From: Candidatus Kaiserbacteria bacterium RIFCSPHIGHO2_01_FULL_53_29
GTDB taxonomy: Bacteria; Patescibacteriota; Minisyncoccia; Phycocordibacterales; UBA2100
Assembly: GCA_001781125.1 (NCBI GenBank)
Contig: MFKT01000007.1
Coordinates: forward strand, 1-62,974
Length of the DNA: 62,974 nucleotides
Direction: 5' to 3'
The position numbers were made by a program, and so were the translations under genes. A model generated the notes under the pieces. The model did no database searches and had not been told where the DNA came from. It saw nothing but the letters and a program-made list of their open reading frames with translations. This document shows, piece after piece, positions 5,393 to 55,681 of the stretch. Numbering within the stretch: the stretch's first letter is position 1; each line of letters starts with the position of its first letter.

Positions 5393-5402
5393 TCTTCCGA
5401 AT

Positions 5403-22604: not shown

Positions 22605-22605
22605 A

Positions 22606-23202
22606 TCAACTACGCGCCCACGGAATTTCGAATTGCATAAATTCGGGGAGCAATTTCCGCCCGTAGAGGAGGCGCGAGATGACCTCTGCATGCGAGAGCG
22701 CGCCGGTGAGCGCGTTGTGCGGGCTCGGCTCTTCGGGTATGCCGCAGTAATTGAGCACGGCGTCGAGATCGAGCGCGCTGCGGCGATGCTTCACCGGCGG
22801 CTGCAAGCCCTTTCCTATCATGTGCATGTAAGCGAGCGTGTGGGTATCAATGGTGCGATATGCAAAAGGCCATTCAGTATGCCCGGCGCGCTCGGCTGCT
22901 GCTTTGAGGAAGTCGCGGTCGAAGGATACATTTTGTCCGGCAAGCGTGCGTTCCTCCACGCTCTCGCTCCAATGGAGGAAGGCGTGTATGAGGTCGCCCT
23001 CGCTCTGTTTCTTCGGGTCGATAATCTGCTCTTTGGTAAATCCATTGACCGCAAGCGCCTCATCCATCACATGCGCGCCATCCCATATCCGACATTCTTC
23101 ATAAAAACGATTCGAGGGATTGGCAAAATCCAAGGCACCCAAGCTCACAATTGAGTGTTTCCACGGCTCTGTGCCAGATGCTTCGACGTCTACGACTAGC
23201 AT
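22606..23202 (-). CDS. DEDD-type 3'-5' exonuclease (DnaQ/epsilon-like)
   Basis: Exo I VVDVEASG, Exo II GQNVSFDRDFL, Exo III HNALTGALSHAE. The track start 23247 is TTG and lies inside the repeat; ATG 23202 sits 7 nt after the repeat arm. Confidence 0.72.
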   Translation of the reverse strand: MLVVDVEASGTEPWKHSIVSLGALDFANPSNRFYEECRIWDGAHVMDEALAVNGFTKEQIIDPKKQSEGDLIHAFLHWSESVEERTLAGQNVSFDRDFLKAAAERAGHTEWPFAYRTIDTHTLAYMHMIGKGLQPPVKHRRSALDLDAVLNYCGIPEEPSPHNALTGALSHAEVISRLLYGRKLLPEFMQFEIPWARS

Positions 23203-37600: not shown

Positions 37601-38665
37601 AAATCTTCCATCGTCGCTCATTGAGAATAAAGTTCCACCTGTGGATGATTGTGTGCCGTTCGAAGATACGCTGGCTATCGTTGTGGTTCCCAGCAGTCGA
37701 TCACGAACCAAAACCTGAAAATTGTTTGACGGTTGAGAATCCGTAAAAATGGACGGGAGGGTAGTCATAAAAGCAACATACCGACCGTCAGCACTGATGA
37801 TAGGAAAACCGGTAGAACCCCTATCTTGCGATACAACGAGGGGGACGGTTATCAGCTCAGTCGTCTGCGTGACCCGATCGCGCACATAAATATGGCTCCT
37901 TGCATTATCGGTATGCCAATTCGTAGAACCCGAAACGAACGCGACATACCGCCCATCTGCAGAGATTGAAGGAGTATCGGAGTCCCCATTACCTTGTTCA
38001 CCATTGGGGCCGATACTCACGCGCTCGGTCGTTCCTGTCTGTAGATTGCGAACAAAGACGTCGCTACTAAAACCCGGCGACCCGTTCGTGTCATCGGGCA
38101 CAAGATTCGTTGCGGAAGACGAAAACGCAACAAATCGCCCATCTGCACTTAATGACGGCTGGGACGCACTCCAGTTTGCCTCTGTACCATCCAAAGCCAC
38201 GCTGATTCTCGCCGTCTCTTCGGTTTGCCTGTCGCGGACAAAGATATCGTGAGGAAGGCCTGTATTATCAGTTGGTGCCGATAAGATGCCTTCAAATGCC
38301 ACAAAGCGTCCGTCGTCGCTTATCACTCTGGGACTAGGAGTACCGAAACCGTAGCCTGTACTTCCATTACTCTGCTCGCCATTTGACGAGACATTCACGC
38401 GACTAAAGATTTTACTCGTGCGATCATAGAAAAATAAATCAAATAGATTGTTGGTATCATCGGGAACGAAATTTGATGAGAACGAACTAAATGCTACAAA
38501 TCCTCCATCCCTGTTGAGAATAGGGCCCCAAGAAACCCCGTTACCCTGCGTTGTGAACGATGCGGGGGTCGCTTGCGCCCATACAATCTGCGTCTTGGTA
38601 ACAAAAACACTCACGAAAATTAGAAGGGGGAGAAGTCCATATATACCGTAATTCAATCTCCTCAT
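34691..38665 (-). CDS. 1324-aa secreted multidomain protein: beta-propeller repeats + Ig-like domains + lipase-like alpha/beta-hydrolase + C-terminal beta-sandwich and helical tail
   Basis: Signal peptide. About 7 repeats of S.DGR[FY]VAF....N[LF][VT]PDDTN....D[IV]FVRD (aa ~40-435). ITVLSPNGGEVWEIGKTYEIRWDG Ig-like domain. HLVFITHGW ... HFIGHSAGSNV (GxSxG at aa 801-805). Confidence 0.85.
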   Translation of the reverse strand: MRRLNYGIYGLLPLLIFVSVFVTKTQIVWAQATPASFTTQGNGVSWGPILNRDGGFVAFSSFSSNFVPDDTNNLFDLFFYDRTSKIFSRVNVSSNGEQSNGSTGYGFGTPSPRVISDDGRFVAFEGILSAPTDNTGLPHDIFVRDRQTEETARISVALDGTEANWSASQPSLSADGRFVAFSSSATNLVPDDTNGSPGFSSDVFVRNLQTGTTERVSIGPNGEQGNGDSDTPSISADGRYVAFVSGSTNWHTDNARSHIYVRDRVTQTTELITVPLVVSQDRGSTGFPIISADGRYVAFMTTLPSIFTDSQPSNNFQVLVRDRLLGTTTIASVSSNGTQSSTGGTLFSMSDDGRFILFWSGDSNLTPDDTSVDRADLYVRDLITGVTARVQNAPGLSGHGGGSMSGDGRIVAFGPWDASPQHNSRTDIYVTDNPLYASTTTPSGEHITVLSPNGGEVWEIGKTYEIRWDGADFPANTGVQIGLRDSRFDPNLGSGEGSIANTTNTGSYVFTVPQSLGFLSDGQLGGDSVYRIVVYLDGGGLSGKFDESDESFSIVPTGELEDHLPTIFALNQSSATWQDGIPEDHYINDTTITFSAILDDFDEGQLQFQVELREFDQPFTGEMDGGILTSGSVEAESVATIIRAGLTPGSYHWRARAIDASNATSDWSEFGESGNVDFTIASSIVDLAPQQNIIPGVICSPAKHLVFITHGWDDNVDGWVKDMALSMQNYINAHVPNPGEWSVCTFDWSRDAARVSLKDLVFIGTPLFVPPWDAYATAGLHGTVVGGKLALNKYESIHFIGHSAGSNVIQSAAEMVRINTPATKIHLTFLDAYYPDGISLRYGLEPTRNGLPIPNRSDWWAEQYVDARGRPILAPTNVLLPHVYNFDVTERDGFQIPQNEIDIGNEIRDAENNFTGLRQIVELGKIVVRYTPYLNRVHAWPHIWYQASVLWPSDPSSDEPLAVYGHHLSLEGGKDRLPLEFPNIEPLNVCTFRKDIEVPCLTSNTRTGSSVNYLPAFNIQGNISRQSETGTVTFLDSHTAQATPGSPVWFEFSASTADTTNVLHFDYEFLTVPGSEEMMTVFVDDRVAYKIDERITDPGVHTASEISVGDLTPGEHTIGFRLDPFTDAKSAIKIGNVQLGLLTQETAIVDTSVKGLLDEALAKLKSITTGNQDIDTATDAVEGDLEKVIADTAWLDRNRLSWPSGQLVLINEVRIIKALGDIVNKLGQGQRRSSVLGATEALYRDVQSEIVQSSALLAQLSLNEAKNSRAKNALEQRILDRTITQIQNMYDRAASMEARSPAQALQLYISAWVAAELLPRTQGI

Positions 38666-38996
38666 GCCACCACTGTATAACTAAAAACCCCAGCGCAACA
38701 GAGCACCGCTCGATTACGATCTTGAGTGGTTCCTCAGGGGCATTTTCAGAGATATGGGGCCATACTCGTCTCCCCTTTCTTTGAGACATCCCTTCCGGGC
38801 AAGAATCCGTAATCTATCCCGGTCTTTAACGTCGGAGGAAGCTTTATGTGGAACTGAAATGGTATGCCCGTGCAATTCTCATGTCGAGCCATGCCCGCTC
38901 TGTGCCTATCGAAAGTCCCATTACTGGGCACTATACCAGCATTAGCGAAAATATGGAGAATGTGCTCACGGTTTTCCGACCCTTATTCTGTTGGCA

Positions 38997-39347
38997 TTAC
39001 TCTGTCATTGAGGATATCGCACCGGTCGCCTTATCGACCTCATACCAATCGAATGTTGCCGTGTGACTGTTTGCGCCCTCCGTTACGATCTCAAACACCT
39101 GGACGGCCCATGTGTCACCCTGATCTTCAACATTGAATTGTGCGACCTTACCTGCCGCTCTTAGCGTGCGTATAAACTCCTGCACTTCCGGCAGCGCAAC
39201 CACGCGATCGAGTATCTCTTGCGTTTCGGAGTCCGATGCAAGCATCGATTGCTGCGGTTCAAAGACGCCAAATGCCCAAGCGAGCGACGCAATGGCCACG
39301 AGCGCAGCAAGAATGACCAGCAGTTTTTTGAGCGAAATGTGAGTCAT
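38997..39347 (-). CDS. Small secreted/anchored protein (PepSY-like pattern)
   Basis: ATG 39347 forms an ATGA overlap with the upstream stop. Signal anchor LKKLLVILAALVAIASLAWA, and DTWAVQVFEIV...YEVDKATGAI. Confidence 0.45.
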   Translation of the reverse strand: MTHISLKKLLVILAALVAIASLAWAFGVFEPQQSMLASDSETQEILDRVVALPEVQEFIRTLRAAGKVAQFNVEDQGDTWAVQVFEIVTEGANSHTATFDWYEVDKATGAISSMTE

Positions 39348-39814
39348 GTGCTTCGTTCTTTCAATTGAAGTTGCTGCCACAACAGGAGTGCGACGACGGC
39401 GTTTGCGAGGAGGAGGAGCCCTGCGACGATGGGCGCCGCAACTGTAAGAGTGAGCGAGTATGTGGTAGGCATGAGATTAATCATAGCAGCAATAAAGACA
39501 ATCGCCGCCGCGGAGCTCGCGAGAGTGCCTGCTTTATTCGCAGCGGAGGATGGGAGGACGAAGAACACGGCCGAAAGTGTGACGAGTGCCGCGGCGGTCG
39601 TCGCGAGCAAATGTCCCGCTCGGACGAGCGCCCATCCAGTCTCGTTATTCAGGGGTAGCCACGGCAAAAGAAAGAGAATAAGAACTGCAAGATCAACGCT
39701 GAGAGCAGTGAGCCGCAGGCGCCGAATTTGTTCGCTCTTGTACGAAAAGTAGAATGTCTTCAGCGCCCAGAATGAGATGACGCCCCACACGATCCAAAAA
39801 AGAGCAGTTTCCAT
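39344..39814 (-). CDS. Hypothetical 4-5 TM membrane protein
   Basis: 156 aa, highly hydrophobic. Tightly packed in the operon: starts 3 nt after the upstream stop. Confidence 0.5.
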   Translation of the reverse strand: METALFWIVWGVISFWALKTFYFSYKSEQIRRLRLTALSVDLAVLILFLLPWLPLNNETGWALVRAGHLLATTAAALVTLSAVFFVLPSSAANKAGTLASSAAAIVFIAAMINLMPTTYSLTLTVAAPIVAGLLLLANAVVALLLWQQLQLKERST

Positions 39815-39817
39815 GCG

Positions 39818-40369
39818 CTACTCCTTCCCGACATCAAATGATGCAACGATAGAGGCGAGAATCTCTTCGTACTTCCCGCCCGTTTCATCCTCGGCGCGAA
39901 TCTGATACCGCATGCCGCCAGAGACAAATCCGATCTCTGTAAAAAGAATGGATTGCCCGCCATCGAAGCGCGTCCCGCTCGCCCAGTATAGGGGATCTTC
40001 ACCGGGTATGAGCTTGAAATCGGCGATATCGTAAGAGGGATCGCGTCTCAATGCCTCTCCAATCGCGCCAAATGCATCGGCGACACCTGCGTCGGAATCC
40101 GCTATGACGATGACCCGTGCCGAGCCAAGTTCGCTAGAGAGAGCGATGCCATTTTCCAATTCGGTTTTTATCCACCAGCCGGGATAGTCGATCGAATAGT
40201 TGCCGCTCTCGTAAGAAACGGAATCGTAGACCGGCTCGTATGGCTCTGCAGCTGATGGTGCGCTCTTCCCCGAAAACGCGAAAAGCGCGATAAGGACACA
40301 CGCAAGCAAAGTACCTCCCGCGATCGCGAGATATTTAGGTGTAAGATATTTTTGAACGTCGATTTCCAT
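39818..40369 (-). CDS. Membrane-anchored extracytoplasmic protein (PsbP/DUF1795-like pattern)
   Basis: 183 aa with an N-terminal anchor. YSIDYPGWWIKTE... mixed alpha/beta pattern. Starts 3 nt after the upstream stop. Confidence 0.45.
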   Translation of the reverse strand: MEIDVQKYLTPKYLAIAGGTLLACVLIALFAFSGKSAPSAAEPYEPVYDSVSYESGNYSIDYPGWWIKTELENGIALSSELGSARVIVIADSDAGVADAFGAIGEALRRDPSYDIADFKLIPGEDPLYWASGTRFDGGQSILFTEIGFVSGGMRYQIRAEDETGGKYEEILASIVASFDVGKE

Positions 40370-40372
40370 ATG

Positions 40373-42640
40373 TTATCGAGGGGGTTCCACCGGACAGCGA
40401 GGATCGCTGGCGGGAGCTCTCGCAAGATTTAGCCCTTCGTCGAGCGCCTCCCATGAGAGCCGCGCAAGCACAGCCGGAAGTTCCGATACCGCATTTGGAA
40501 AGCTGCACGGAGAGCCATCTCCAGTGCTGCTCAAGTCGAGGTCAAGCGGCGGCTCAGCGTCGTTCGGGAAAGAGAGCAATGGACACACAAATTCCACATT
40601 CTCGACCGTGTCGCTCGTGAGCTCGTATTCCGGTTCAACTTTCTCCCATTCCGCCTGCCAACTTGCTCCGCCCGCCTTGCACGAGAACGACTCCGTGCCC
40701 TCCCACATGCGCACGCGCACCGGTATCACAATACGGCCGATCATGCGGGTTTTTTTCGTGAAATCCTGGATGTCGCCGATGAGCGTTTGCGCCTTCTCGG
40801 CAGCTCCGCCGATGCTATCAGGCGTATAAGTGCCATACCGTGTCTCTGCGACAGGCTTTAATTTTCCTACGGCTTTATTTGCAAGGTACTTGGTAGCCTC
40901 TTCGACGGCGCCGAAAAGGGCCTTCCCCGCGCTTTTAAGGTCGAGAACTTTACTGATAGCTCCGACAACCGCAAATCCATTCCTGAAACCTCGGAGGTCC
41001 GCGTCGGGGATCGCGACAGCCGGATTCGCCTCTATAGTTGGCAGGCGATCTGCGACTTCGGCGTAGCTGCATGCATATGGTTCTTCGGCACGCACTTCCC
41101 CTGTTTTGCATTGGTCGACATAATCGCCCGCGCATAGCGGCGCCTGGATCGAGGAGGGTACGAGGCCCGCGACTTGTTTTTTGTGAAAATCGCTTACCTT
41201 TTCTCGAAGCTCCTGCTTCTGCGCCTCCTTTTCTGCTGCCGCTTTCTGAGCAAGCATTTCGGCGGCCGCTCTCCGAGCAGAATCTTCGGACGATTGCCGG
41301 CGTGCCTGTGCCTCTTCTTCAAGACTGCGCTGCTGCGACTCCAACCTGCAGCGTGAAGCTTTTGAAAGCGCGTCGGCGTGCGCCGCAATGGCTGCTTCCT
41401 TCTCTTGCTGCGCTTGCGCTACGCGTGTGGCGAGCTGGTCTCGCTCCGCCTTGGCGCGCGGCAGTCCTTCTTCGAGCATCGCGAGCGCTGCCTCGATCTT
41501 TTTCTGCTCTCGCAAGTTTTCTGCGACCGAGAGACCGGAGTCCTTTCTCGTCTGTATCAACGAGACTACTTGTGCAATCTCCTGCTTTGTGAGCGATATG
41601 TCGCTCTCAAGTCTTCGTACACGCAATCCTTGTTTCTGAAACCGATCATCGAGTCGATCAAGTTCACTGACCGTCGCCACGAGCGCGACATCGGCTTCTG
41701 TCGCGTTGATCTGCGCCGCTGCGGCTTCGGAAGCGGAGCACAAGGGTCCATGTGGCACTTCCGTGGGAGCTTGGACGCGAGTCGCAGGTGGAGGTTCAGA
41801 CATAGAATTCACAGTTTCCGGCGCGGCAATCGGTTTTTTACACATCTCCGGTTCAGAAGGGATAGGAGGCGCTGCGGCAGGTTGTGCCGGAGTCAGACAT
41901 GCGTTCCGTTCCTCATCACACTGGGCATAGCACGAGCTTTCCCCCTCGTCCGTACATGGTCCGATAAGGCCGCCATATTCGCACATCTGACCCGCGCTTG
42001 CGTTGCGTGCGCCTTCAAGGCTTCGCGCCGTGGCCGCACACTGACCATGGCAAGCAGCAATGTCCGCTTCAGCCGACCGTTTACATGCCTCGTATGGTAT
42101 GCGGCACTTGCTTTGGAGCTCTTCTTCGCAGGACAGATTTCCAAACGCGACGTTGCCGGTGCATGTGCGATTCCCCTTTGCATCTCGTTTATCTATGACT
42201 TTATATCTGCAATCAATATCTTTTTTGGTGCAGCTTTGAAATGCAGCGTCGTAGCTATCGCCATATGTCGCACGGCATTGCCCCTTGCATGCATTTTCGG
42301 CAGTGTAGATTTCCTGAAATGTTGGAAGGTCATTTTTTTTCGAACGAGGTTCCCCTTTGCACTTTGCACTACAGACATCATATGCTGCGTTACACTTTTG
42401 TCGTTGTTGCATAGAGGGCTCCGCCTCTCTGGCAGACGAGCCATCTCGTCCGCCGTCTGATTCGGTCATTGCACCATTCGACCGGCACGTACCATCGGCA
42501 TGCTTCTCACAATCCTCATATGTCGTGGAGCTTTGCGCGAAAGCGAGTGATGCCAATGCGGTCGCTACGAACACGCCAACTGCGATACACACGGTGCCTG
42601 CTGTCACAACGCTCGCAGGCACGTCGAGGAGCTTTTTCAT
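40373..42640 (-). CDS. Secreted Cys-rich / coiled-coil protein of unknown function
   Basis: Start set at ATG 42640 (MKKLLDVPA...), 7 nt after TACGAT; the track start 42673 is GTG. Signal peptide, a ~220-aa region with ~26 Cys, a Pro-rich linker, a ~180-aa coiled coil and a ~250-aa C-terminal domain. Confidence 0.7.
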   Translation of the reverse strand: MKKLLDVPASVVTAGTVCIAVGVFVATALASLAFAQSSTTYEDCEKHADGTCRSNGAMTESDGGRDGSSAREAEPSMQQRQKCNAAYDVCSAKCKGEPRSKKNDLPTFQEIYTAENACKGQCRATYGDSYDAAFQSCTKKDIDCRYKVIDKRDAKGNRTCTGNVAFGNLSCEEELQSKCRIPYEACKRSAEADIAACHGQCAATARSLEGARNASAGQMCEYGGLIGPCTDEGESSCYAQCDEERNACLTPAQPAAAPPIPSEPEMCKKPIAAPETVNSMSEPPPATRVQAPTEVPHGPLCSASEAAAAQINATEADVALVATVSELDRLDDRFQKQGLRVRRLESDISLTKQEIAQVVSLIQTRKDSGLSVAENLREQKKIEAALAMLEEGLPRAKAERDQLATRVAQAQQEKEAAIAAHADALSKASRCRLESQQRSLEEEAQARRQSSEDSARRAAAEMLAQKAAAEKEAQKQELREKVSDFHKKQVAGLVPSSIQAPLCAGDYVDQCKTGEVRAEEPYACSYAEVADRLPTIEANPAVAIPDADLRGFRNGFAVVGAISKVLDLKSAGKALFGAVEEATKYLANKAVGKLKPVAETRYGTYTPDSIGGAAEKAQTLIGDIQDFTKKTRMIGRIVIPVRVRMWEGTESFSCKAGGASWQAEWEKVEPEYELTSDTVENVEFVCPLLSFPNDAEPPLDLDLSSTGDGSPCSFPNAVSELPAVLARLSWEALDEGLNLARAPASDPRCPVEPPR

Positions 42641-42681
42641 CACAATCATCGTATCATTGACTTGTCTGACCACTGTCGATT

Positions 42682-43296
42682 ATGCACAGATTCGTTTCAA
42701 CATCGCTTCTTTCCCTTCTCGCGGTCAATATCGGCGTCATCGTGTTCGCCGTCAAGGACGAGTGGTCGCCGCCGACGATCCTTGCAACCTACTGGCTCCA
42801 GAGTGTCATCATCGGGATTTTTCAAGCGAAGAAGATGTCGGGCCTGCAGAAATTTCGTACCGACGGACTCAAGATAAACGAGCAGCCTGTCGCTCCGGTC
42901 GCTTCAACTCGAAGGAAAGTTGTCCGTTTTTTCCTTTTTCACTACGGCCTCTTTCATGTCGTCTACCTTTCTTTTCTCTTTACATATGCCGGTGCGCCCG
43001 ACTTTGTTGGGGTCCTTACTGCCGGAGCAGCTTTCTTCGCAAATCATCTTTTCTCATATTATGAGAATCACGAGCGCGATTTGAGACATGTGCCAAATAT
43101 CGGTGGCATGATGTTTTTCCCCTACATTCGCATCATCCCGATGCATCTTTTCGTCGTGCTTGGAGCGATCGTAATACCGACAACCGCCGGTCTCGTTTTC
43201 TTCCTGACACTGAAAACGCTCGCCGACGCCGCGATGCATATGATCGAGCATTACGGCGATACCAACACTTTACGGAGTAGCGGTCGTTTTTACTGA
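42682..43296 (+). CDS. Hypothetical membrane protein
   Basis: 204 aa with 5-6 hydrophobic helices (FFLFHYGLFHVVYLSFLF). Confidence 0.5.
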   Translation: MHRFVSTSLLSLLAVNIGVIVFAVKDEWSPPTILATYWLQSVIIGIFQAKKMSGLQKFRTDGLKINEQPVAPVASTRRKVVRFFLFHYGLFHVVYLSFLFTYAGAPDFVGVLTAGAAFFANHLFSYYENHERDLRHVPNIGGMMFFPYIRIIPMHLFVVLGAIVIPTTAGLVFFLTLKTLADAAMHMIEHYGDTNTLRSSGRFY

Positions 43297-44652: not shown

Positions 44653-44952
44653 TTAGTGGATTCCTGCAATACCGAGTGCGGCCTGCATGTCGTCGTTTTC
44701 GGCAAGCGCATTGCGCCGCGTCATACGACAGCGCTGACATCGATGGACTATGGCGTATTCAGGCGAGGCGCCTTCGAGCGCTATCGGCTCCATCATACCC
44801 GCACACACGGCCGCCCGATCGCCTGGATCCACATCCACATGCTTGCTCCAGAGACATGAAGGGCAATGATTGGTATATCCACTACCCGTCACCGATGTGC
44901 CACAATGCTCACACACAAAATCCTCTATCCTCCTTTGGAAACGCTTTGCCAT
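44653..44952 (-). CDS. RNHCP-domain zinc-ribbon protein
   Basis: FVCEHCGTSVTGSGYTNHCPSCLWSKHVD...HRCQRCRMTR. ATG 44952 (MAKRFQRR) avoids overlap with the upstream gene. Confidence 0.7.
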   Translation of the reverse strand: MAKRFQRRIEDFVCEHCGTSVTGSGYTNHCPSCLWSKHVDVDPGDRAAVCAGMMEPIALEGASPEYAIVHRCQRCRMTRRNALAENDDMQAALGIAGIH

Positions 44953-44957: not shown

Positions 44958-46181
44958 TTAATTGACGGTGACAAATGCCGTTTGCCGGATCATAGCTCCG
45001 GAGTGCGCCGCGCACGAAAGAGTAAATGTCATAGGACCGCGAGGTGTGCTTGCATCGGTCGGTATGATCTTCGAGCCTTCATTCTTTTGCGCAAGGACCG
45101 AGGTTTTATTGCTTACTGTACAAGGCGCGTCGGTTTTCATTCCGACACTCGACCACGACAGGACGATCGAATTGCCGCGGACAACGATGCGCGGCTGGAC
45201 GAAAAGCGTTGCTTCCGATGGGATCCCTGCCGGAGGAATGGGAGTGGCGGAGAGCGTCGAGGCTGTTCCACGCAGAGCATTCAAAAGCTGCTGTGCGATG
45301 GATGACTGCTCTACCGGCGTCGAAGGCTGCAAGATCGAGAGCGGCTGCGACGCGAGCACGGGCTGAATCGCTATCGTCGGAGGACTTGAAACATTACTCG
45401 GGGGCGGCGGGTTTGGGGGCGGCGCGGCAAAATAATTGCTTGGAGCCGGCGTCACATTGGCAAACGGACTCCCGTATCCGCTACTATATCCATTTGCCCC
45501 ACTACCAAAACCTGAATGCGTGTAGCCTCCGTAGGGTGGGGCGTTGAATCCGGTGTTTTGCTGGCCGCCTTGATATCCAGCGTTCCCTGCCAGGTCGGGA
45601 GAAGTACCCCCCTTCTGTGACAGAGGGTTCGGAGGTGCAACGACGGACAACTCTTTCCCGACGGTCACCGTTTTCCCGACAGTTGGTGCCGGGGGTTGAG
45701 CCGCCACCGATGTCGGAGCTATGCGACTCATGTTCCGCCCCTGCTTGCAAGCAACTTCATACGCGGCCTCGGGATTTGTCGCACATTTCGACACTGTGAC
45801 ACTACCAGACAAACAACCGGTCTTGCTTTTGTCGATAACTGTTGTCACCGTCGGCTGTGTCTGATCCGCTCGTTCGCAACCAACTTTATCCATTTGGGCT
45901 TGCGTGGTGCATATACAGGTCACTTCATCGCTAAGCACGTTTCCAAGACCCGTTAGTGTGACTTTCTCATTTGTACAGAAATTTGTACTTCCGACTAAGT
46001 TCGTGAATGCTTCTTTTCCAACAGCCGGATCCAACGACCAAATTGGTGGTGCTGACTTAACGGTTGTTCCCGACTTGCAGATACTTTTTTGAAGTCCGTG
46101 AGGTAACGTTTCAGCATGAACAGTGCCGGAAATGAGAACTATCAGCAAACTAAGAAGGATTTCCTTTCGTATCATATTCAT
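44958..46181 (-). CDS. Secreted protein: 9-Cys N-module + low-complexity linker + shared 84-aa C-terminal domain
   Basis: Signal peptide MNMIRKEILLSLLIVLISGTVHA. CTD: ATLFVQPRIVVRGNSIVLSWSSVG...MTFTLSCAAHSG. ATGA overlap with the upstream paralog. Confidence 0.7.
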   Translation of the reverse strand: MNMIRKEILLSLLIVLISGTVHAETLPHGLQKSICKSGTTVKSAPPIWSLDPAVGKEAFTNLVGSTNFCTNEKVTLTGLGNVLSDEVTCICTTQAQMDKVGCERADQTQPTVTTVIDKSKTGCLSGSVTVSKCATNPEAAYEVACKQGRNMSRIAPTSVAAQPPAPTVGKTVTVGKELSVVAPPNPLSQKGGTSPDLAGNAGYQGGQQNTGFNAPPYGGYTHSGFGSGANGYSSGYGSPFANVTPAPSNYFAAPPPNPPPPSNVSSPPTIAIQPVLASQPLSILQPSTPVEQSSIAQQLLNALRGTASTLSATPIPPAGIPSEATLFVQPRIVVRGNSIVLSWSSVGMKTDAPCTVSNKTSVLAQKNEGSKIIPTDASTPRGPMTFTLSCAAHSGAMIRQTAFVTVN

Positions 46182-47503
46182 TCGATCAAGGTCGACGCGG
46201 AGCGCTCGATTTTATCTCCGCTTTGCGACATGCACGAGAGCGTGAACGTCATTGTACCGCGCGCAGTCTGTGGAGTGGTGGATATCACTTTTGAACCTTC
46301 GCTCTTTTGCGCGATCGTGATGTTGCCCGTGCGCACCGTGCATGGAGTGCTCTGACTCGTCCCGACCGACGACCACGAGACAAGGACGGGGTTGCCGCGT
46401 GAGACTGATCGAGGTTGCACAAAAATCGTCGCGACGGACTGTATGGAAGGTACTGCGGGCTTGGGGAACGGTACGGGAGCCGGGGGAGGACTCACCTTAA
46501 GAGCCTGCATGAGTTGCTGCACTATTGGCATTCCCGCTTGCGGAGTCGATGCATAGGGAACACTGGACTGACTGCCGATCGGCGTTTGCACGACTGATGT
46601 GGGTTGAGCAGCGGGAAATGACGGCCGCGAGACAGGTTGCTGCATCTGTGCAAGCGGCGCTTGCTGCATTTGTGGCGGAGGCAGGGGCGGCCGCGGAGGC
46701 GCGTATTGCGATTGATTGTTGTAGCAATTGGAGGGAAATTGGGTTCCCGCCGGTACGGGGATGACGATTATGGGCTCGATGCTAGTAATGCAGTAATAAT
46801 CCTGACTGTAAACCGGGCCTCCGTACGGATTATAGGTAGGGGGTGCAAACGTTGGGGGATATCCGATAGTCGTTGGATACCCGACCGTATACGGTGAAGG
46901 TCCGAGATTCGTTACCGTGTTGATGCCCACCGGTCCGCCGATTTGGAACCATGTGCGCGACGCAGTAGAACCTGAAACGATGCTCATCGCTTGGCCATCC
47001 GATTTCCCGCGAAAATCGCCAACGGCGATATCGAATTTGTCAGGCCTCGGCTGACTACTAAACATTCCTTTTTTACCTCCGTAATTCGGACATGAGCCGT
47101 TAAACGCGCAGCCAGTGTCATGTACGTACCCAACAACATTGCTCATCGTATATGTCTGCCCATCAATGGGACTCCGATATCGCAATGTCGGAATCTTGTA
47201 CCACTTGCCGTAATTCGATGCTGCCGATGCGAGCGTCACATATTTTGACCTCCCGAGTCGCACCTCATCGAGCGTATGCGGGATAGACTTTCCTTCTCTG
47301 TTGGGTCTTGATGTCGCAAACCCGCCCTGCATGGTGCCGCTTGCGCCGGGGCCGTAGAACGTCGGCACGACATTCACGGGCGTGCCGCCCGAAGAAATAT
47401 CAGGTGTCTTGATTATACCGCCCTCAACCGCAGTAATCGCAGCGTACGCGGCGGTAGCTGACAACAGAAAAAAGACGAGGCCAAGTCCTGTCGTGCGTAT
47501 CAC
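46178..47503 (-). CDS. Secreted protein: 3D/MltA-like (DPBB) module + linker + shared 84-aa C-terminal domain
   Basis: GTG start 6 nt after TATAAT. Signal peptide. YVTLASAASNYGKWYKIP...VGYVHDTGCAF...KFDIAVGDF. CTD: ATIFVQPRSVSRGNPVLVSWSSVG...MTFTLSCMSQSG. Confidence 0.68.
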   Translation of the reverse strand: MIRTTGLGLVFFLLSATAAYAAITAVEGGIIKTPDISSGGTPVNVVPTFYGPGASGTMQGGFATSRPNREGKSIPHTLDEVRLGRSKYVTLASAASNYGKWYKIPTLRYRSPIDGQTYTMSNVVGYVHDTGCAFNGSCPNYGGKKGMFSSQPRPDKFDIAVGDFRGKSDGQAMSIVSGSTASRTWFQIGGPVGINTVTNLGPSPYTVGYPTTIGYPPTFAPPTYNPYGGPVYSQDYYCITSIEPIIVIPVPAGTQFPSNCYNNQSQYAPPRPPLPPPQMQQAPLAQMQQPVSRPSFPAAQPTSVVQTPIGSQSSVPYASTPQAGMPIVQQLMQALKVSPPPAPVPFPKPAVPSIQSVATIFVQPRSVSRGNPVLVSWSSVGTSQSTPCTVRTGNITIAQKSEGSKVISTTPQTARGTMTFTLSCMSQSGDKIERSASTLIE

Positions 47504-47574
47504 CTCCTCATTATACTCCGACGACGCGATGCGAGCGGATGCCGTGTTGATTACAGCACTACAACATCAATATA

Positions 47575-48750
47575 TTAACGAATAGTTGCCGAAGTTGATC
47601 GCTCGACATTTTGTCCACTTTGCGACGTGCACGAGAGCGTGAACGTCATTGGACCGAGCGCATTTGTGAGGTTAGTGGATACGATCTTTGTTCCTTCATT
47701 CTTTTTGGCGAGTTCGAGCGAACCGGCGCGGACAACGCAAGGCGCATCTGTTTTCATGCCGACACTCGTCCACGACACGATGATGGGATTCCCGCGTGCA
47801 ACGACGGGTGGCTGCGCGATGATGAGGGCCCGACTTGCGATCGTCGCGGCCGTAGACGTAGGAGCTCCCGTTTGAGTCGTCTGCCCTTGCGTCTGCGTTT
47901 GTGACTGAAACTGCGGCAGCACCGCTTGCAAAAGTTTTTGCACGACCGACGGTTGGTTTGCCGGACTGAATGCGGAGTTCGGCACAAGCGGAAGCGTGGG
48001 CTGCTGAGGATTGGCTAAGCCGGTCGGCAAATATGTCGTCGGATACGTACGCTGCGTATCCGGCACTATCGGGGTCGATGCGGGCAAATACGCGCTTGCC
48101 GGTATATCAGCGTTCGTCCGCGAATATGGAATTCCGTTTCTATCTTCGAAATTTCCTGTCACCTGAATGCTTCCGCCCGCCCCCATCCTTCTTGAGATCT
48201 CCTGCAGAACGCCCGCTAATGTTCTGTTGCCGCCGAGAAGTCCCGCATTCCATCTGCACTCTCTGGGAAATTCTCTGCATGCATTCGCCTGCGGGTTTTG
48301 CACGTAAAAAGATAAGAATCGCCGAGCTCCACCCAATCCCAAAAAGTGGCCCATATAGATGCCGACGCACGGGTCGATTCTCGCTTGACTGATCAAACTC
48401 CGTAAATTATTGAAGTTGTCTTTCGCGTGAACTGCGGTGACTTTGGCTGCTACGGACGGGTTGAAGCGTTGAGAATCGTCAAGAGGTCCTCCAGTTCCCG
48501 ACACTGCCCGCGAGACCGCCCTCCACGAGTCACGAGTCCATTGGAATACCCCTGCCGCATTCCCCGTCTGCGCGTTCACGACATTTCTACCACCGCTCTC
48601 AATACGAGCGATTTTTGCGAGGCATCCCGTGGGAAGTTGATACTGCCGCTCGAGCTCTGAGAGAATCTGATTGAAATCTGTACTGGCAGAAGACGTGGAT
48701 GGGGCAAGGATGATCAGTAGTAGAAGAGTCGAAAGGAGCCATGCTTTCAT
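47575..48750 (-). CDS. Secreted protein: SLT-like lytic transglycosylase module + linker + shared 84-aa C-terminal domain
   Basis: Signal peptide. LAKIARIESGG...NAAGVFQWTRDSW resembles the E-S...GLMQ motifs of SLT. CTD: ALIIAQPPVVARGNPIIVSWTSVG...MTFTLSCTSQSG. TATACT lies 6 nt before the ATG. Confidence 0.68.
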   Translation of the reverse strand: MKAWLLSTLLLLIILAPSTSSASTDFNQILSELERQYQLPTGCLAKIARIESGGRNVVNAQTGNAAGVFQWTRDSWRAVSRAVSGTGGPLDDSQRFNPSVAAKVTAVHAKDNFNNLRSLISQARIDPCVGIYMGHFLGLGGARRFLSFYVQNPQANACREFPRECRWNAGLLGGNRTLAGVLQEISRRMGAGGSIQVTGNFEDRNGIPYSRTNADIPASAYLPASTPIVPDTQRTYPTTYLPTGLANPQQPTLPLVPNSAFSPANQPSVVQKLLQAVLPQFQSQTQTQGQTTQTGAPTSTAATIASRALIIAQPPVVARGNPIIVSWTSVGMKTDAPCVVRAGSLELAKKNEGTKIVSTNLTNALGPMTFTLSCTSQSGQNVERSTSATIR

Positions 48751-48801: not shown

Positions 48802-49041
48802 CTAGAGAAGAACGACCGCGCGATTGGCGGACATTTCGAGAACACCGCTTTCGATCTCAAATCGTTTTGCCTCACCTGATGTGCGCACCGTGATAGTTCC
48901 GGGCTTCAAGGTTGTCACGATGGGCTCGTGATGCGCCAGCACGGTCAGCTCGCCCGCTTCCCCCGGCAGAGTCGCCGAAATTGCCTCGCCATCGAAGCGC
49001 GTCTCGCCCACAGACGCGATAATAAGATGAAAAGTATTCAT
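48802..49041 (-). CDS. atpC: F1 ATP synthase epsilon subunit, beta-sandwich domain only
   Basis: 79 aa: HLIIASVGETRFDGEAISATLPGEAGELTVLAHHEPIVTTLKPG. Lacks the C-terminal two-helix domain. Last gene of the atp operon. Confidence 0.8.
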   Translation of the reverse strand: MNTFHLIIASVGETRFDGEAISATLPGEAGELTVLAHHEPIVTTLKPGTITVRTSGEAKRFEIESGVLEMSANRAVVLL

Positions 49042-49048
49042 AGCACTT

Positions 49049-50814
<1,766 letters not shown>

Positions 50815-50822
<8 letters not shown>

Positions 50823-51168
50823 TATTTGTGTTTATGATTTCCTTCAAGTACGCGTCGAGAGCCGCACGATACCCATCGATTATTGTGTCGTTGGCTTCAA
50901 AGCCGAGCAGTTCCAGGTCTTTTATCAATTCTTCGCCACTTATAAAAGCAATTCTCTTCCATTCATCGACTGATTGGGGTATTTCATGCGGTGAATATCG
51001 CACCATCGCTTCGTTGATCCCGGCAATGATCGTATCCTCATTGGTAGTTCCCCACTTGTGCTCATGACCGAGCTCGCGTATCGCCATGTGAGCCGCGTCC
51101 GCGACGAAGGCTTTGGGAGTTGCCTTTTCGGCCAAATTCTCCACGGACTTCTTCGGCTGCTCGAGCAT
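50815..51168 (-). CDS. Hypothetical protein encoded inside the atp operon
   Basis: 117 aa with no recognised motif. The ATG is 1 nt after the atpG stop. Overlaps the next ORF by 8 nt (ATGCCTAG). Confidence 0.5.
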
Positions 51169-51169: not shown

Positions 51170-52087
51170 CTATTTCATCGCCTCAATGCCGGAAGTGATC
51201 TCGGAAACTTCGCGGGTAATAGCGGCTTGACGGACTTTGTTGAACTTACGGGTAAGGTCGCCAGCCATTTCTTTGGCCTTGTCGGTGGCGCTTTTCATTG
51301 CCACACGCCGCGCGGAGTGCTCGGAAGCCTTCGCTTCCAGAAGCCCGTGGAAAACCGCAATGTTGAGGAGTTTCGGAAGTAGAACGGCCAAGACACTCTG
51401 CGGATCCGGCTCGACGGTGTAGACGGCAGGCCGTACGATCTTCTCTTCCGCATCGGGTGCATATTTCCCGCGCGCGGGCCTGATACCCGCGACGATCTCG
51501 CGGATAGTCTCCGGTTGTATCGGGACTATCTGGCGGACGATGGGCTCCTGTTCGAATGTCGAAACGAAGTTGGTGTACGCAATAACAGCGGCTCCGATCT
51601 CACTGGCGGCATGCCACTCCACGACCTTGTCGGTGACCATCCGCATCTCGTCCTCGACGACGCTATCGCTCACATTCTCGAGTTTTTCGCGGACCTCGTA
51701 TCCTCGATTCGCAAAATAATCCGCGCCGCGCCTCCCGACGCCGATCATGACAACGTCTTCGCGCTTGAGCTTCCGAGCCACGATCTCCTGTTCGACGCGG
51801 CGAATGACACCGCTGTTGAGAGAGCCTGCGAGCCCCTTGTCGCTTGTGACGACAATTATGCACGTCTTGCCCGCGCGCTCACGCATGAGCGGGTGGTGAG
51901 CGACATCTGCTGTCCCCGAAAGCCGTTCAAGGACCGAGAGCGCTGCGGCCGCATAGCTGCGGCCGGAAAGCGCGCGCTCCTGCGATTTGCGCATCTTGAC
52001 GGCCGAGACTGCCTCCATGGCATGAGTGACAGTGCCGGTCTTTTTGTAGGACAGGATCTTTAGCTTGATGTTTTTAAGCGAGGCCAT
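51170..52087 (-). CDS. atpG: F1 ATP synthase gamma subunit
   Basis: MASLKNIKLKILSYKKTGTVTHAMEAVSAVKMRK and the C-terminal ITREVSEITSG helix. Confidence 0.92.
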   Translation of the reverse strand: MASLKNIKLKILSYKKTGTVTHAMEAVSAVKMRKSQERALSGRSYAAAALSVLERLSGTADVAHHPLMRERAGKTCIIVVTSDKGLAGSLNSGVIRRVEQEIVARKLKREDVVMIGVGRRGADYFANRGYEVREKLENVSDSVVEDEMRMVTDKVVEWHAASEIGAAVIAYTNFVSTFEQEPIVRQIVPIQPETIREIVAGIRPARGKYAPDAEEKIVRPAVYTVEPDPQSVLAVLLPKLLNIAVFHGLLEAKASEHSARRVAMKSATDKAKEMAGDLTRKFNKVRQAAITREVSEITSGIEAMK

Positions 52088-52093: not shown

Positions 52094-52176
52094 CAGCTTG
52101 CAGCCGGTAGCTTGTAGCTTGTAGCGGGATGCATAATTCGGTTTTGCTACTGGCTGCAGGCTACGGGCTACTGGCT
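52094..52176. repeat. Inverted pair of heptamer arrays (TAGCTTG family) bracketing the atpA-atpG gap
   Basis: cagcttgcagccggtagcttgtagcttgtagc (52094-52125) and gctactggctgcaggctacgggctactggct (52146-52176). The upstream arm contains the atpA stop. The downstream arm ends 6 nt before the atpG ATG. Confidence 0.7.
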
Positions 52177-53733
52177 AAATAATTCTTTGTGCGCGAGCGT
52201 GAATTCTTCAAGTGCGCGATTTAGATCTTTCTTCAGATCTTCCGAGACGGTCCCCGTCTTTTTGATCGCGGCCAATGTCTTGGGGTGTTGGCCATCGAGG
52301 TACTCGACGAGTTCGGCTTCCACGGCGGTTACTTTCGCCACCAGCACGTCGGCGAAAAATTTGTGGCTGGCAGCATAGAGTATCGCCACCTGCATCTCGA
52401 TGGGAATGGGTGCGCCATTCTTCTGCTTCAATACTTCCACCATACGCTGACCGCTCGCGATGCGGTCGGCGGTCACTTTGTCGAGATCCTGTGCGAACTG
52501 CATGAATGCTTCGAGCTCGCGGAATTGCGCGAGCTCCAGCTTGAGACCGCCCGCGACCGATTTCATCGCCTTTGTCTGTGCAGAGGAGCCCACGCGGGAG
52601 ACCGAAATACCGACATCGATTGCCGGTCGCACGCCCTTGTTGAAAAGCTCGGCAATAAGGAATATCTGCCCGTCGGTGATAGAAATGACGTTGGTCGGAA
52701 TGTAGCCGGATACGTCGCCCTCTTGCGTCTCGATAATGGGAAGTCCCGTGATCGAGCCGCCGCCCTTCTCTTTCGAAAGGCACGCGGCGCGCTCGAGCAA
52801 GCGCGAGTGGAGGTAGAAAATGTCGCCCGGATACGCTTCACGCCCCGGTGGTCGGCGCAAGAGGAGCGAGAGCTCACGATAAGCCACCGCCTGCTTCGAG
52901 AGGTCGTCGTAGACGATGAGCACGTCATAGCCGCGATCCATAAAATATTCGCCGATGGCAACACCGGAAAACGGTGCGAGGAATTGCAGCGCCGCGGGCG
53001 CAGAGGCCGGCGCGTCGACGATTATCGTGTACTCAAGCGCTCGCTCGCGACGCAGCTGCTCGACGATGCGTGCGGTCTTACTTTCCTTTTGGCCGATAGC
53101 AACATAGATGCAGATGGGGCGGTTGTCTTTGGGCTCGTTGCGCTGGTTGATGATGGTGTCGACGGCGACGGTGGTCTTGCCCGTGCCGCGATCGCCAATG
53201 ATGAGCTCGCGTTGCCCGCGGCCGATGGGGATCATCGAGTCGATCGCCTTGATGCCTGTCTGGAGTGGTACTGATACTGACTTGCGATCGATGACGCCGG
53301 CAGCCTGCCGCTCCACAGGCATCATGGTCGTTTCTTTAAAAGGCCCCTTGCCGTCAATAGGCTCGCCCAAGGCGTTCACAACGCGCCCGAGCAGTTCTTC
53401 GCCGGACGGTACCGAGAGAATTTTACCGGTCGATTTGACCGTCATGCCTTCATTGACGCGCGCGGTGTCGCCAAGGATAGTCGCTCGCACGCCATCTTCT
53501 TCGAGATTCAAGATGAGACCATAGAGCTCGCTTTGCCCCTGCATCCCCTCTGCCAACTTTTTGCCTTTCCCTTCCTCAAAGATAACGATCTCGCTCATCA
53601 CCGCCTTGGAGAGACCGTCGATGGCCACGACTCCATCGCCGACCGATGTGACACGCCCCACATGCTGGCTTTCATGCGAAGGAGCGAAATGCTCTATTTC
53701 TTTTATTATCTTTTCAACGGTTGATGCATCCAT
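52168..53733 (-). CDS. atpA: F1 ATP synthase alpha subunit
   Basis: GDRGTGKTTVAVDTI Walker A, 521 aa. Confidence 0.97.
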   Translation of the reverse strand: MDASTVEKIIKEIEHFAPSHESQHVGRVTSVGDGVVAIDGLSKAVMSEIVIFEEGKGKKLAEGMQGQSELYGLILNLEEDGVRATILGDTARVNEGMTVKSTGKILSVPSGEELLGRVVNALGEPIDGKGPFKETTMMPVERQAAGVIDRKSVSVPLQTGIKAIDSMIPIGRGQRELIIGDRGTGKTTVAVDTIINQRNEPKDNRPICIYVAIGQKESKTARIVEQLRRERALEYTIIVDAPASAPAALQFLAPFSGVAIGEYFMDRGYDVLIVYDDLSKQAVAYRELSLLLRRPPGREAYPGDIFYLHSRLLERAACLSKEKGGGSITGLPIIETQEGDVSGYIPTNVISITDGQIFLIAELFNKGVRPAIDVGISVSRVGSSAQTKAMKSVAGGLKLELAQFRELEAFMQFAQDLDKVTADRIASGQRMVEVLKQKNGAPIPIEMQVAILYAASHKFFADVLVAKVTAVEAELVEYLDGQHPKTLAAIKKTGTVSEDLKKDLNRALEEFTLAHKELFSQ

Positions 53734-54913: not shown

Positions 54914-55681
54914 TCAATGCGCCGGGGTGATGGCGATCTTGATGAAAAAGAGCGTCAGGAGGGCGAAGATGGCGGCTTGGATGAAGCCGACGAAAACTTC
55001 GAACGCCATAAGTGGCACGGGCCCCGCATACGGAATGAAGTAGGTCGCGACGAGTATCAGCACTTCGCCGGCGAGGATGTTGCCGAAGAGCCGGAAAGAA
55101 AAGGAGATGAGGCGAGCAAGCTCGGAGAAGACCTCGATGAAGCCTACAACGGAGCCTATCGGGTTCTTAAAAGGATTGGGGAAAAACTTGTGGAGGTATG
55201 TGCCCAAGCCCATCACAACAATGCCCGTCACCTCGATGACCACGAACGCGATAGCCGCGAGCGCAAGCGTCACATTGAGATCCGTGTTGACGCTGCGCAG
55301 AAGTGGTGTGAACTCATGTCCGCCGGAGGCGGATCCGCCTCCGGCGGAGAAAAATCCGATGCTTCCGATACCGGGCGTGAATTCCAAAAGGTTGGCTGTA
55401 AAGATAAAAAGAAAGAGCGTCACGAGAAGCGGGAAGAACGTGCGCGCGAGAGCCTTGCTCTCAAGGATTTCCGCGACGTAGTCGTAGATGAATTCCACGA
55501 GCCACTCGAAGAGTGTTTGGAGACGGCTCGGCGTCATTTTGAGCCTTGTGCCGATGGTGAATGCGAGAACGACAAGAAGCGCGATGACTATCCAGCTTGT
55601 TATCAGTGTATTGGTGATGGGAATCCCCCACAGGCTGCCAAGCTGCTCGGGGGCGAGAACGACATGGATTCCTTGTTCCAT
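54914..55681 (-). CDS. atpB: Fo ATP synthase subunit a
   Basis: 255 aa. SFSFRLFGNILAGEVL contains the conserved Arg motif. TGATAGAAT lies 8 nt before the ATG. Confidence 0.9.
   Translation of the reverse strand: MEQGIHVVLAPEQLGSLWGIPITNTLITSWIVIALLVVLAFTIGTRLKMTPSRLQTLFEWLVEFIYDYVAEILESKALARTFFPLLVTLFLFIFTANLLEFTPGIGSIGFFSAGGGSASGGHEFTPLLRSVNTDLNVTLALAAIAFVVIEVTGIVVMGLGTYLHKFFPNPFKNPIGSVVGFIEVFSELARLISFSFRLFGNILAGEVLILVATYFIPYAGPVPLMAFEVFVGFIQAAIFALLTLFFIKIAITPAH

Follow-up and report, generated by a model that had tools for sequence, protein, structure and literature searches.

We found that three consecutive minus-strand genes in the window (the whole 62,974-nucleotide stretch analyzed here) encode proteins of 391, 441, and 407 aa that share one C-terminal domain, and with moderate confidence we interpret these proteins, hereafter C391, B441, and A407, as Sec-exported modular wall enzymes that would cleave glycan strands while being anchored or targeted by this common Ig-like domain. 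A sequence-only reading of the same DNA had described tandem, apparently secreted modular paralogs with a single C-terminal domain in common; the ORFs are present as it gave them and, together with an 84-aa gapless alignment, support that description. Each protein would begin with a signal peptide that is cleaved off, followed by its N-terminal working module, a tether of 110–170 disordered residues rich in Pro, Gln, Ser, and Gly, and finally a C-terminal Ig/PKD-like beta-sandwich. The N termini of all three resemble Sec signal peptides (basic residues first, then a hydrophobic core and a small-x-small site, assigned by eye from sequence), with predicted cleavage at VHA-E, AYA-A, and SSA-S.

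The final 84 residues of C391 (308–391; 47578..47829, minus strand), B441 (358–441; 46181..46432, minus strand), and A407 (324–407; 44961..45212, minus strand) align without gaps, with 42–45 of 84 positions identical per pair (50–54%) and 58–62% DNA identity between copies over 255 nt. The domain boundaries originally proposed (44958–45212, 46178–46432, and 47575–47829) are exact, the stop codon being counted in them. A BLASTP comparison of two copies (E = 3e-31) lies far past composition effects; a local HMM also recognizes the copies in B441 and in C391 (149 bits in the latter). The parallel plus-strand shadow ORFs that had been pointed out are real (44962–45366, 47627–47875, and others), and they are antisense by-products of C-domain conservation. 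The AF2 model of the A407 copy (pLDDT ∼98) is all-beta, with seven to eight strands, and a cysteine pair (Cys354 and Cys390 in A407 numbering) is conserved. The closest structural matches are Ig-like domains of the PKD, FnIII, and MG types, and a Foldseek search with this copy retrieved the ColG PKD domain (4tn9/2y72; E = 5e-4, TM 0.65–0.67). The PKD-like domain of Clostridium histolyticum ColG (4TN9/2Y72) and the FnIII-like modules of CbhA, its nearest structural neighbors over ∼89 aligned positions, serve as accessory domains in secreted enzymes that degrade polymers, but identity to them is only 12–14%, no Pfam PKD or FnIII model matches, and the C-domain has its own conserved Cys pair and SWSSVG and TFTLSC motifs. 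Pfam and NCBIfam models, including those for type IX sorting domains, gave no match. The C-domain is thus confidently predicted to be a previously undescribed Ig/PKD-like beta-sandwich, although the fold, as modeled, is generic and uninformative on the ligand.

The N-terminal module is most readily identified in C391 (47575..48750, minus strand, ATG start). Residues 22–186 match PDB 3bkh/9xps (E = 4e-11), and the protein matches the PHROG transglycosylase family phrog_4067 (E = 1.5e-17); its Pfam SLT match is weak (16.9 bits, under the cut-off), and the orthologue in locus L004 clears that cut-off. The homology to the endolysin gp144 of Pseudomonas phage phiKZ (PDB 3BKH; SLT/lysozyme-like superfamily) spans the whole catalytic domain, and the alignment places Glu51 of the ARIESGG motif opposite gp144 Glu115 and preserves the Y..HF.G..ARRFL motif. 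The suggestion that this module is SLT-like was therefore well founded, and homology shows the head of C391 (residues ∼24–190; 48181..48681, minus strand) to be a phiKZ-gp144-type lytic transglycosylase with Glu51 as its predicted catalytic residue. The phage enzyme binds peptidoglycan through an N-terminal domain and lacks a signal peptide; C391, by contrast, has a signal peptide but no such binding domain, and a long disordered tether joins its head to the Ig-like domain at the C terminus.

In B441 (46178..47503, minus strand), the 441-aa form requires a GTG start, and the public gene call (P0010, 384 aa) begins 57 codons further downstream; we favor the long form because the L002 orthologue (64% identity over 239 aa) and P0003/P0004 conserve the upstream part. 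Its head, the B-module (residues ∼22–197; 46913..47440, minus strand), is a candidate new wall-degrading module. An alignment with six homologues leaves Asp79, Asp114, Asp129 (HDTG), and Asp158 (KFDI) invariant. The sequence-only reading had likened the HDTG...KFDI region to 3D/MltA-type enzymes, and there are indeed short collinear motifs resembling Escherichia coli MltA (D[TV]GGA[FI]xG, [FL]D[IV], and, in phage-type homologues, VASD), but B441 has Ala where the 3D triad has its first Asp. Pfam, PDB-sequence, and profile searches found no known family or characterized hydrolase, and sequence tests against E. coli MltA and RlpA-like domains were not significant, be it by HMM, profile, or pairwise comparison. 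What stands of the 3D/MltA proposal is the predicted fold: in the AF2 model (pLDDT 77, pTM 0.76), the best PDB matches are double-psi barrels (GH45 barrels, PA4485, and MltA), all weak (E ≥ 0.019, TM 0.24–0.30). The closest true relatives are uncharacterized phage virion proteins. The phage protein A0A0F7L8N3 matches the module (E = 1.9e-10), which also occurs at 39–50% identity in 18 IMG/VR viral contigs. In phages the module sits next to a DNA-ejection protein or within a tail-region protein of 1174 aa, there adjoining an endolysin domain, and it is also met near P22 portal and coat genes. Because it is found in phage ejection and tail proteins, a wall-degrading role for the B-module gains independent support. 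As judged from sequence, then, B441 and phage ejection/tail proteins have in common a previously unclassified module, which probably cleaves glycans and resembles a double-psi barrel; Asp129 and Asp158 are its candidate catalytic residues. The B441 linker also contains a two-cysteine mini-motif, YYCITSIEPIIVIPVPAGTQFPSNCYN (residues 236–262; 46718..46798, minus strand), that recurs in P0013, which has a DPBB_1 head, and in L004, which has a gp144-type head.

A407 (44958..46181, minus strand, ATG start) carries a Cys-rich N-module (residues ∼24–150; 45732..46112, minus strand), and the protein gave no Pfam, NCBIfam, PHROG, or PDB match. The nine cysteines first ascribed to this module are eight, the whole protein having 10, two of them in the C-domain. 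Nor is the module an alternative enzyme: it serves the family as its customary N-terminal accessory, found in 67 family proteins with an A407-seeded HMM and in ∼97 of 130 full-length members with wider N-terminal HMMs. Four Cys, one Gly, and one Pro are invariant across the family; no relatives outside the family were found in the PDB or databases searched, and the AF2 model is of low confidence. A407 thus has no recognizable catalytic module and is probably noncatalytic. Between this module and the C-domain runs a linker (residues 151–323; 45213..45731, minus strand), 76% P/Q/G/S/T/A/Y/N in composition and predicted by AF2 to be disordered, that contains an SPFANV motif and, at residues 295–304, IAQQLLNAL as a predicted short helix. 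The linker motif reported as shared (IAQQLLNAL/IVQQLMQAL/VVQKLLQAV) is present in all three proteins, but in the wider family only ∼25 of 130 full-length members have it.

A profile of the C-domains, suggested earlier as a way to catalogue the fused N-modules, retrieved a large family of at least 317 protein clusters (E ≤ 1e-3) to which different wall-cleaving modules are attached. In a census made with HMMs built here from family members, and confirmed in part only by Pfam or PDB, ∼120 of the 130 full-length members bear a glycan-cleaving-type module: SLT/gp144-like in 83, phage Gp29/endolysin-like in 17 (PDB 9vvp, 1.2e-10; 7q47, 3e-4), RlpA-like barrels in 12 (Pfam DPBB_1, 1.3e-15), and the B-module in 8. 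The barrels are true DPBB_1 domains, like those of RlpA-like lytic transglycosylases, on family members in the same genomic slot; amidase or peptidase modules were not seen among the 130. The closest relatives by C-domain bear differing N-modules, which shows that related genomes retain the tail domain in the slot and swap the enzyme head in a cassette-like manner. The same logic, interchangeable heads on one retention or targeting module, governs the modular autolysins and endolysins of monoderms (LysM, SH3b, SLH, and choline-binding repeats), likewise secreted and domain-shuffled; here, unlike there, the shared module is one Ig/PKD-like domain for which databases have no model, always at the very C terminus and limited to glycan-cleaving heads and one conserved slot in a CPR clade. 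Polymorphic toxin and effector loci also combine a constant module with exchangeable heads in tandem paralogs at one locus, but in this family the order is inverted, the N-terminal part varying and the C-terminal part staying constant, no immunity genes were found between or after the three genes, and the heads are wall glycan-cleaving enzymes rather than toxins.

One could also envision the C-domain as a sorting signal, recognized by dedicated machinery of the envelope and thereafter cleaved off or attached covalently, in the manner of type IX cargo or other C-terminal sorting tags. Such sorting domains are likewise beta-sandwiches of ∼80–100 residues at the extreme C terminus of many secreted cargos, and the all-beta C-domain lies at the exact C terminus in 143 of 149 proteins, as one copy of ∼84 residues per protein, is joined to many different heads, and has strongly conserved surface motifs (QP, RG, SWSSVG, NEGS, and TFTLSC). 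We nonetheless consider this unlikely: the sorting-domain models do not match, the proteins already bear predicted Sec signal peptides, and the cargo is one class of wall-glycan enzymes at one locus, where a general tag would be expected genome-wide on many kinds of protein. No conserved candidate for a processing enzyme was found beside the slot, and CPR cells are not known to have an outer membrane, so that the secretion context of type IX cargo is missing.

The slot itself is bounded upstream by atpC, encoding ATP synthase epsilon (48805..49053, minus strand; Pfam ATP-synt_DE_N and synteny), and downstream by an RNHCP-domain gene (44653..44952, minus strand; Pfam RNHCP, E = 1.8e-29, and synteny). 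This order, atpC, family gene(s), RNHCP, was found in Kaiserbacteria/Parcubacteria genomes at nine loci in the first searches and in four of five further look-ups, the fifth locus beginning at a contig end; nearly all family members examined occupy it. All related loci are in Kaiserbacteria/Parcubacteria MAGs, in keeping with the initial view that the organism is a CPR bacterium. It is very improbable that these genes are a prophage remnant, that is, degraded genes for phage endolysins or tail lysins that do nothing for the cell. Phages do carry homologues of their heads (gp144, Gp29/endolysin, and, in viral contigs, the B-module), but the ORFs are intact and have predicted signal peptides, no phage genes were found flanking the three-gene locus, every related genome has this same chromosomal slot occupied, and a search of viral contigs did not find the C-domain.

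A further possibility, which we hold to be real but rather doubtful, is that the proteins are host-directed lysins, which the cell would release or display so as to break through a bacterial host's peptidoglycan in episymbiosis, with the C-domain binding the host surface or wall. The producer belongs to a CPR lineage, its enzyme heads are phage-type lysin modules that are swapped between genomes and present here in three copies, the long tethers could provide reach, and a role in host adhesion has been proposed for secreted Ig-like and PKD-like proteins of Paceibacteria (PMC10936435). Against this, endolysins, receptor-binding proteins, and bacteriocins usually vary the binding part and keep the enzyme, whereas here the binding-type domain is constant; the family gene is a positional core gene next to the ATP-synthase operon in all genomes examined, the C-domain was not found in viral contigs, and the known hosts of Paceibacteria include archaea without murein. 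The organism's own peptidoglycan, moreover, requires such enzymes: it builds its own wall polymer, and the window codes for MraY, FtsW, and MurG as well as for an S11 carboxypeptidase and an M23 peptidase. The phage-derived heads, the cassette exchange, and the three-gene expansion would also fit an offensive, host-directed role.

Returning to the exported wall enzymes that we favor, the constant C-domain would most likely fix the variable heads to a single conserved part of the producer's envelope, for which the wall, a wall polymer, or a surface protein is a candidate, and the heads, each on a flexible tether, would act on peptidoglycan at its glycan strands. The constancy of the C-domain and the conserved slot next to housekeeping genes are at least as compatible with a role directed at, or anchored on, the producer itself as with an attack on a host, and we lean slightly toward the producer's own envelope as the anchoring site. 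Directed at the producer's own wall, these enzymes may serve growth, division, or the insertion of pili or secretion systems.

Downstream of the ATP-synthase operon, the window carries three consecutive minus-strand genes, which we name by protein length: C391 (391 aa, 47575-48750), B441 (441 aa, 46178-47503) and A407 (407 aa, 44958-46181). The open reading frames lie exactly where the sequence-only reading had placed them; the long form of B441 requires a GTG start and is supported by the conservation of the upstream residues in an orthologue. Spacing across the cluster is tight (54 nt, 71 nt, a 4-nt overlap, then 5 nt to the RNHCP-domain gene), and a promoter and terminator scan gave a result no better than shuffles. 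To judge by sequence, each of the three proteins starts with what resembles a Sec signal peptide. The C-terminal 84 residues, hereafter the C-domain, align without gaps as had been claimed, with each pair sharing 42–45 identical residues and 58–62% DNA identity over 255 nt; because BLASTP of two of these domains alone gives E = 3e-31, the similarity is homology and not a matter of composition. The plus-strand shadow ORFs noticed earlier (e.g., 44962-45366 and 47627-47875) arise where this conserved domain is read on the opposite strand.

No Pfam or NCBIfam model matched the C-domain in searches with the three proteins at E≤1, including Pfam PKD, fn3 and Big_x. This counts against a type IX sorting domain, and we consider it quite improbable that the C-domain serves as a sorting signal. 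A word-indexed protein search with the C-domain profile returned one fragment only, and the family came to light when 1.84 billion cluster representatives were searched exhaustively with HMMER: 317 proteins at E≤1e-3, 170 of them at E≤1e-10. The domain occurs in a single copy per protein and reaches the last residue in 143 of the 149 best matches; weak matches in multiple stretches were also seen in P0153, a 2139-aa repeat adhesin. Two cysteines and one tryptophan are invariant across 83 members, and the consensus keeps the motifs QP, RG, SWSSVG, NEGS and TFTLSC. AlphaFold2, run on A407 with the family alignment, predicts a beta-sandwich of 7–8 strands (pLDDT ∼98), preceded by a short helix that corresponds to the shared linker motif (IAQQLLNAL / IVQQLMQAL / VVQKLLQAV, as first read) and by ∼150 disordered residues. 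The best PDB neighbours found by Foldseek are the PKD-like domain of ColG collagenase (4tn9/2y72; E = 5e-4, TM 0.65–0.67), followed by other Ig-like domains (alpha2-macroglobulin MG domains, CbhA FnIII modules and Rib), with 3pdg, 2p9r and 6s5w giving similar matches. As modelled, then, the proteins are modular, with a predicted disordered tether leading to a tail at the extreme C-terminus whose fold is an Ig-like beta-sandwich close to solved PKD and FnIII domains, with no matching sequence model in Pfam or NCBIfam. Members in public records are named only "hypothetical protein", and full-text literature searches turned up no account of the family.

Using HMMs built here from the family, we classified the N-terminal modules, or heads, of 130 full-length representatives. 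Most (83/130) bear an SLT/gp144/lysozyme-like head; 17 have a phage Gp29/endolysin-like head, a label based on PDB 9vvp (1.2e-10) and 7q47 (3e-4), 12 an RlpA-like barrel, 8 the module found in B441 (the B-module), 9 a cysteine-rich module only, and 1 something else. An independent Pfam run on 83 members identified SLT in 14, DPBB_1 in 4 (best 1.3e-15), Transglycosylas in 4, Phage_lysozyme2 in 2 and Destabilase in 1, and no amidase or peptidase families. Profile search and catalogue thus bear out the proposal of a family with one tail and varied heads, mostly of glycan-cleaving type.

The genomic position of the family is fixed. A C-domain profile scan of one genome per species returned eight loci, all in CPR metagenome-assembled genomes, with loci labelled Kaiserbacteria, Parcubacteria and, in some cases, Saccharibacteria; their ATP synthase beta is 84–94% identical to that of the window. 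In the window, the three genes stand directly after the ATP-synthase operon (atpB 54914-55681, atpF, atpH, atpA 52168-53733, atpG 51170-52087, atpD 49117-50487 and atpC 48805-49053) and directly before the RNHCP-domain gene (44653-44952) and a flavodoxin-like gene. The order atpC, family gene or genes, RNHCP recurs in L001–L009 and at four of the five additional loci inspected for divergent members; the remaining one begins at a contig end and has a flavodoxin gene downstream. The slot is therefore conserved in every inspectable locus. What occupies it varies: three genes in the window, a gene with the cysteine-rich module only plus a B-module gene in L002, one long gene combining the cysteine-rich module and an enzyme in each of L003, L005 and L012, a gp144-type gene in L004, an endolysin-like gene in L007 and L008, and a DPBB_1 gene in L014. 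Since the C-domains closest to each other bear different heads, we conclude that the tail domain has stayed in place and its heads have been exchanged.

Several other features of these loci are recorded here. In L008 (Kaiserbacteria GW2011_GWA2_52_12), a polytopic membrane protein of ∼500 aa (5401-6909, plus strand) lies between atpC and the C-domain gene; it looks like an ArnT/PMT-type glycosyltransferase, which makes glycosylation of the Ser/Thr/Pro-rich tethers conceivable. Between atpG and atpD the window has two small minus-strand ORFs (50484-51168; 112 and 117 aa) without a Pfam match, and a gap of ∼1 kb with unrelated content occurs at this point in L004, L007 and L009 and not in L002, L003 or L005. 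The YchF and flavodoxin-like genes, adjacent in L002, L004, L005, L012 and L014, are separated in the window by an island of ∼9 kb (34691-43296) encoding large unknown proteins (1324 aa with a weak PD40 match, 766, 183 and 156 aa, and a DUF6498 protein). Elsewhere, the minus strand encodes a leucyl-tRNA synthetase of 1137 aa (28970-32383) with unusual inserted domains by Pfam (alpha/beta-hydrolase, residues 257–376; NUDIX, residues 608–696) and a 380-aa protein (21549-22691) with a Fic/DOC domain match. Scans of the 63-kb window found no tRNA genes, and no Rfam families at the gathering threshold.

Of the three heads, that of C391 is the most readily assigned. Residues 22–186 are homologous to the catalytic part of gp144, the endolysin of phage phiKZ and itself a lytic transglycosylase (PDB 3bkh/9xps, residues 86–248; phmmer E = 4e-11), and the PHROG match is a transglycosylase (E = 1.5e-17). 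In the alignment, Glu51 of C391 (ARIESGG) pairs with gp144 Glu115 (IES), reported as the catalytic residue in the gp144 structure paper, and a downstream Y..HF.G..ARRFL motif is retained. The Pfam SLT model (PF01464) gives C391 16.9 bits, below the gathering cut-off of 21.3, and the positional orthologue in L004 passes with 27.7 bits. The likeness to SLT noted from the ARIESGG motif thus holds, and by sequence homology this head is an SLT/gp144-type lytic transglycosylase carrying the predicted catalytic glutamate.

The B-module (B441 residues ∼22–197) had been compared to 3D/MltA-type double-psi beta-barrels on the strength of its HDTG...KFDI motifs, and here the evidence divides. On the one hand, Asp79, Asp114, Asp129 (HDTG) and Asp158 (KFDI) are invariant in an alignment of seven sequences, and the motifs around the last two resemble LDVGG and FDIY in the E. 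coli MltA series VASD ... LDVGGAIKG ... FDIY, a correspondence by motif only; the first aspartate of that triad (VASD) is present in phage-type homologues and is alanine in B441. The best fold matches of the AlphaFold2 model (pLDDT 77, pTM 0.76) are likewise all double-psi beta-barrels, at TM 0.23–0.30 and none at E≤1e-3: GH45 endoglucanase barrels at the top (weak, E 0.019–0.029, TM 0.24–0.30), then PA4485 (E 0.1) and MltA (E 1.3). On the other hand, the B-module has no match in Pfam, NCBIfam, PHROGs or PDB sequences; Pfam at E≤10 with B441 and six homologues gave none, including 3D, MltA and DPBB_1; a PDB profile search returned nothing relevant; hhalign against the family's own RlpA-like DPBB_1 members gave probabilities of ≤1%; and Smith-Waterman scores against E. 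coli MltA equalled those of shuffled sequences (z about 0). Given these negative comparisons, we do not file the B-module under 3D/MltA, an affinity that stands as a lead rather than a classification, and membership in any described hydrolase family is not demonstrable.

Stronger and independent evidence links the B-module to phages. Six homologues were found at 47–51% identity, all without a C-domain, and portal and coat genes of P22 type are found close to the homologue P0006. The module also has a match in an uncultured marine virus, to a protein of 1003 aa (E = 1.9e-10, TM 0.58, 26% identity) and occurs on 18 IMG/VR contigs at 39–50% identity, in proteins of 568–1174 aa (L019 5965-7668, L031 5203-7728 and L036 4714-8235) that adjoin a DNA-ejection protein (phrog_4287) or a tail protein; in one such protein, in a tail region, an endolysin-type domain (phrog_938/2649) is directly beside the module. 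A tblastn search of INPHARED phage genomes with B441 and P0006 gave no match. As virion proteins of the DNA-ejection and tail types typically carry wall-degrading domains, a wall-degrading role for the B-module is a reasonable inference from this context, and we regard it as a candidate new virion-associated wall-degrading module. The C-domain itself was not found on IMG/VR viral contigs, which lends no support to the notion that CPR phages use it for wall binding, and a prophage-remnant origin for the locus was considered and dropped on context. The linker of B441 contains a two-cysteine mini-motif (YYCIxSIxPxxVxP...CYN; residues 236–262, window 46718-46798, minus strand) that may form a small disulfide loop; it recurs in members that bear different heads (B441, the DPBB_1 protein P0013 and the gp144-type protein of L004), with looser versions in L002b, P0136 and P0084.

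A407 consists of a cysteine-rich module (residues ∼24–150), a tether and the C-domain, with no catalytic module, a short architecture shared by 9/130 representatives. The module has eight cysteines rather than the nine first counted, four of them invariant, and was present in ∼97/130 full-length proteins with wider N-terminal HMMs and in 67 family proteins with an HMM seeded on A407 alone; it usually precedes a helical stretch and then a catalytic module. Neither a PDB profile search nor a word-indexed protein profile search found relatives outside the family, and the AlphaFold2 model is poor (pLDDT 35–65). The A407 linker also includes the motif SPF[AS]N(V/L/M)SP (window 45450-45470 region), which recurs in the linkers of 27/130 members ∼170 residues before the C-terminus and is present in P0003, a B-module protein without a C-domain.

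The cluster had been proposed to be a polymorphic effector family. Polymorphic toxin systems pair a constant N-terminal trafficking part with a variable C-terminal toxin and a cognate immunity gene; here the arrangement is turned around, with the variable part N-terminal and the constant part C-terminal, and the cluster neither contains nor is followed by small immunity-like ORFs, so we reject this reading. The same logic as in the C-domain proteins is instead found in modular autolysins and endolysins. We envision that the three proteins would be exported through Sec, that the B-module would cut wall glycan, and that the C-domain would keep or target these enzymes. Its partners are almost exclusively glycan-cleaving heads, which indirectly suggests that it may bind peptidoglycan or a wall polymer. 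The window encodes MraY, FtsW, MurG, an S11 DD-carboxypeptidase and an M23 peptidase, indicating that the organism builds its own peptidoglycan. These wall genes lie at 12568-20107 (plus strand) and 25075-26346 (minus strand), in the order S11 DD-carboxypeptidase, MraY, FtsW and MurG, then GltX, the M23 peptidase with a coiled-coil N-terminus and an S41/PDZ protease, and none of the genes of this wall-synthesis and maturation region carries a C-domain. When a system is shuffled, the part that stays constant normally meets an invariant partner, and here that part belongs to a positional core gene with housekeeping neighbors, in a bacterium with a wall of its own making; we thus slightly favor binding of the C-domain to a conserved component of the producer's own envelope, a position that would not prevent the heads from acting on a neighbor's wall. 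That heads and C-domain together serve a host-directed role seems to us the less probable alternative, though one to be taken seriously. A more elaborate version, in which the C-domain is a CPR-specific surface-display or anchoring device, the locus a dedicated, hypervariable lysin cassette that repeatedly captures its heads from phages, the B-module an entirely new peptidoglycan-cleaving fold that phage DNA-ejection proteins also carry and the tethered lysins the means by which these ultra-small cells open the host wall, is in our judgment unlikely as a whole.

Almost none of the Parcubacteria-type CPR bacteria has been cultured, and the locus described here bears on how they build, remodel or breach cell walls. 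It defines three unannotated modules: the C-terminal Ig-like domain (at least 317 clusters), the cysteine-rich N-module and the B-module. Its fixed position and repeatedly replaced head provide an easy comparative marker of wall-enzyme turnover in CPR genomes. The C391 head and the B-module are short, soluble candidates for enzyme study, and the C-domain is a candidate for telling self- from host-directed action. If the wall-degrading role of the B-module is true, it would represent a new enzyme family, of relevance to phage entry as well, and if the locus is indeed a host-wall-opening cassette, it would offer a concrete molecular handle on contact between Parcubacteria and their hosts.
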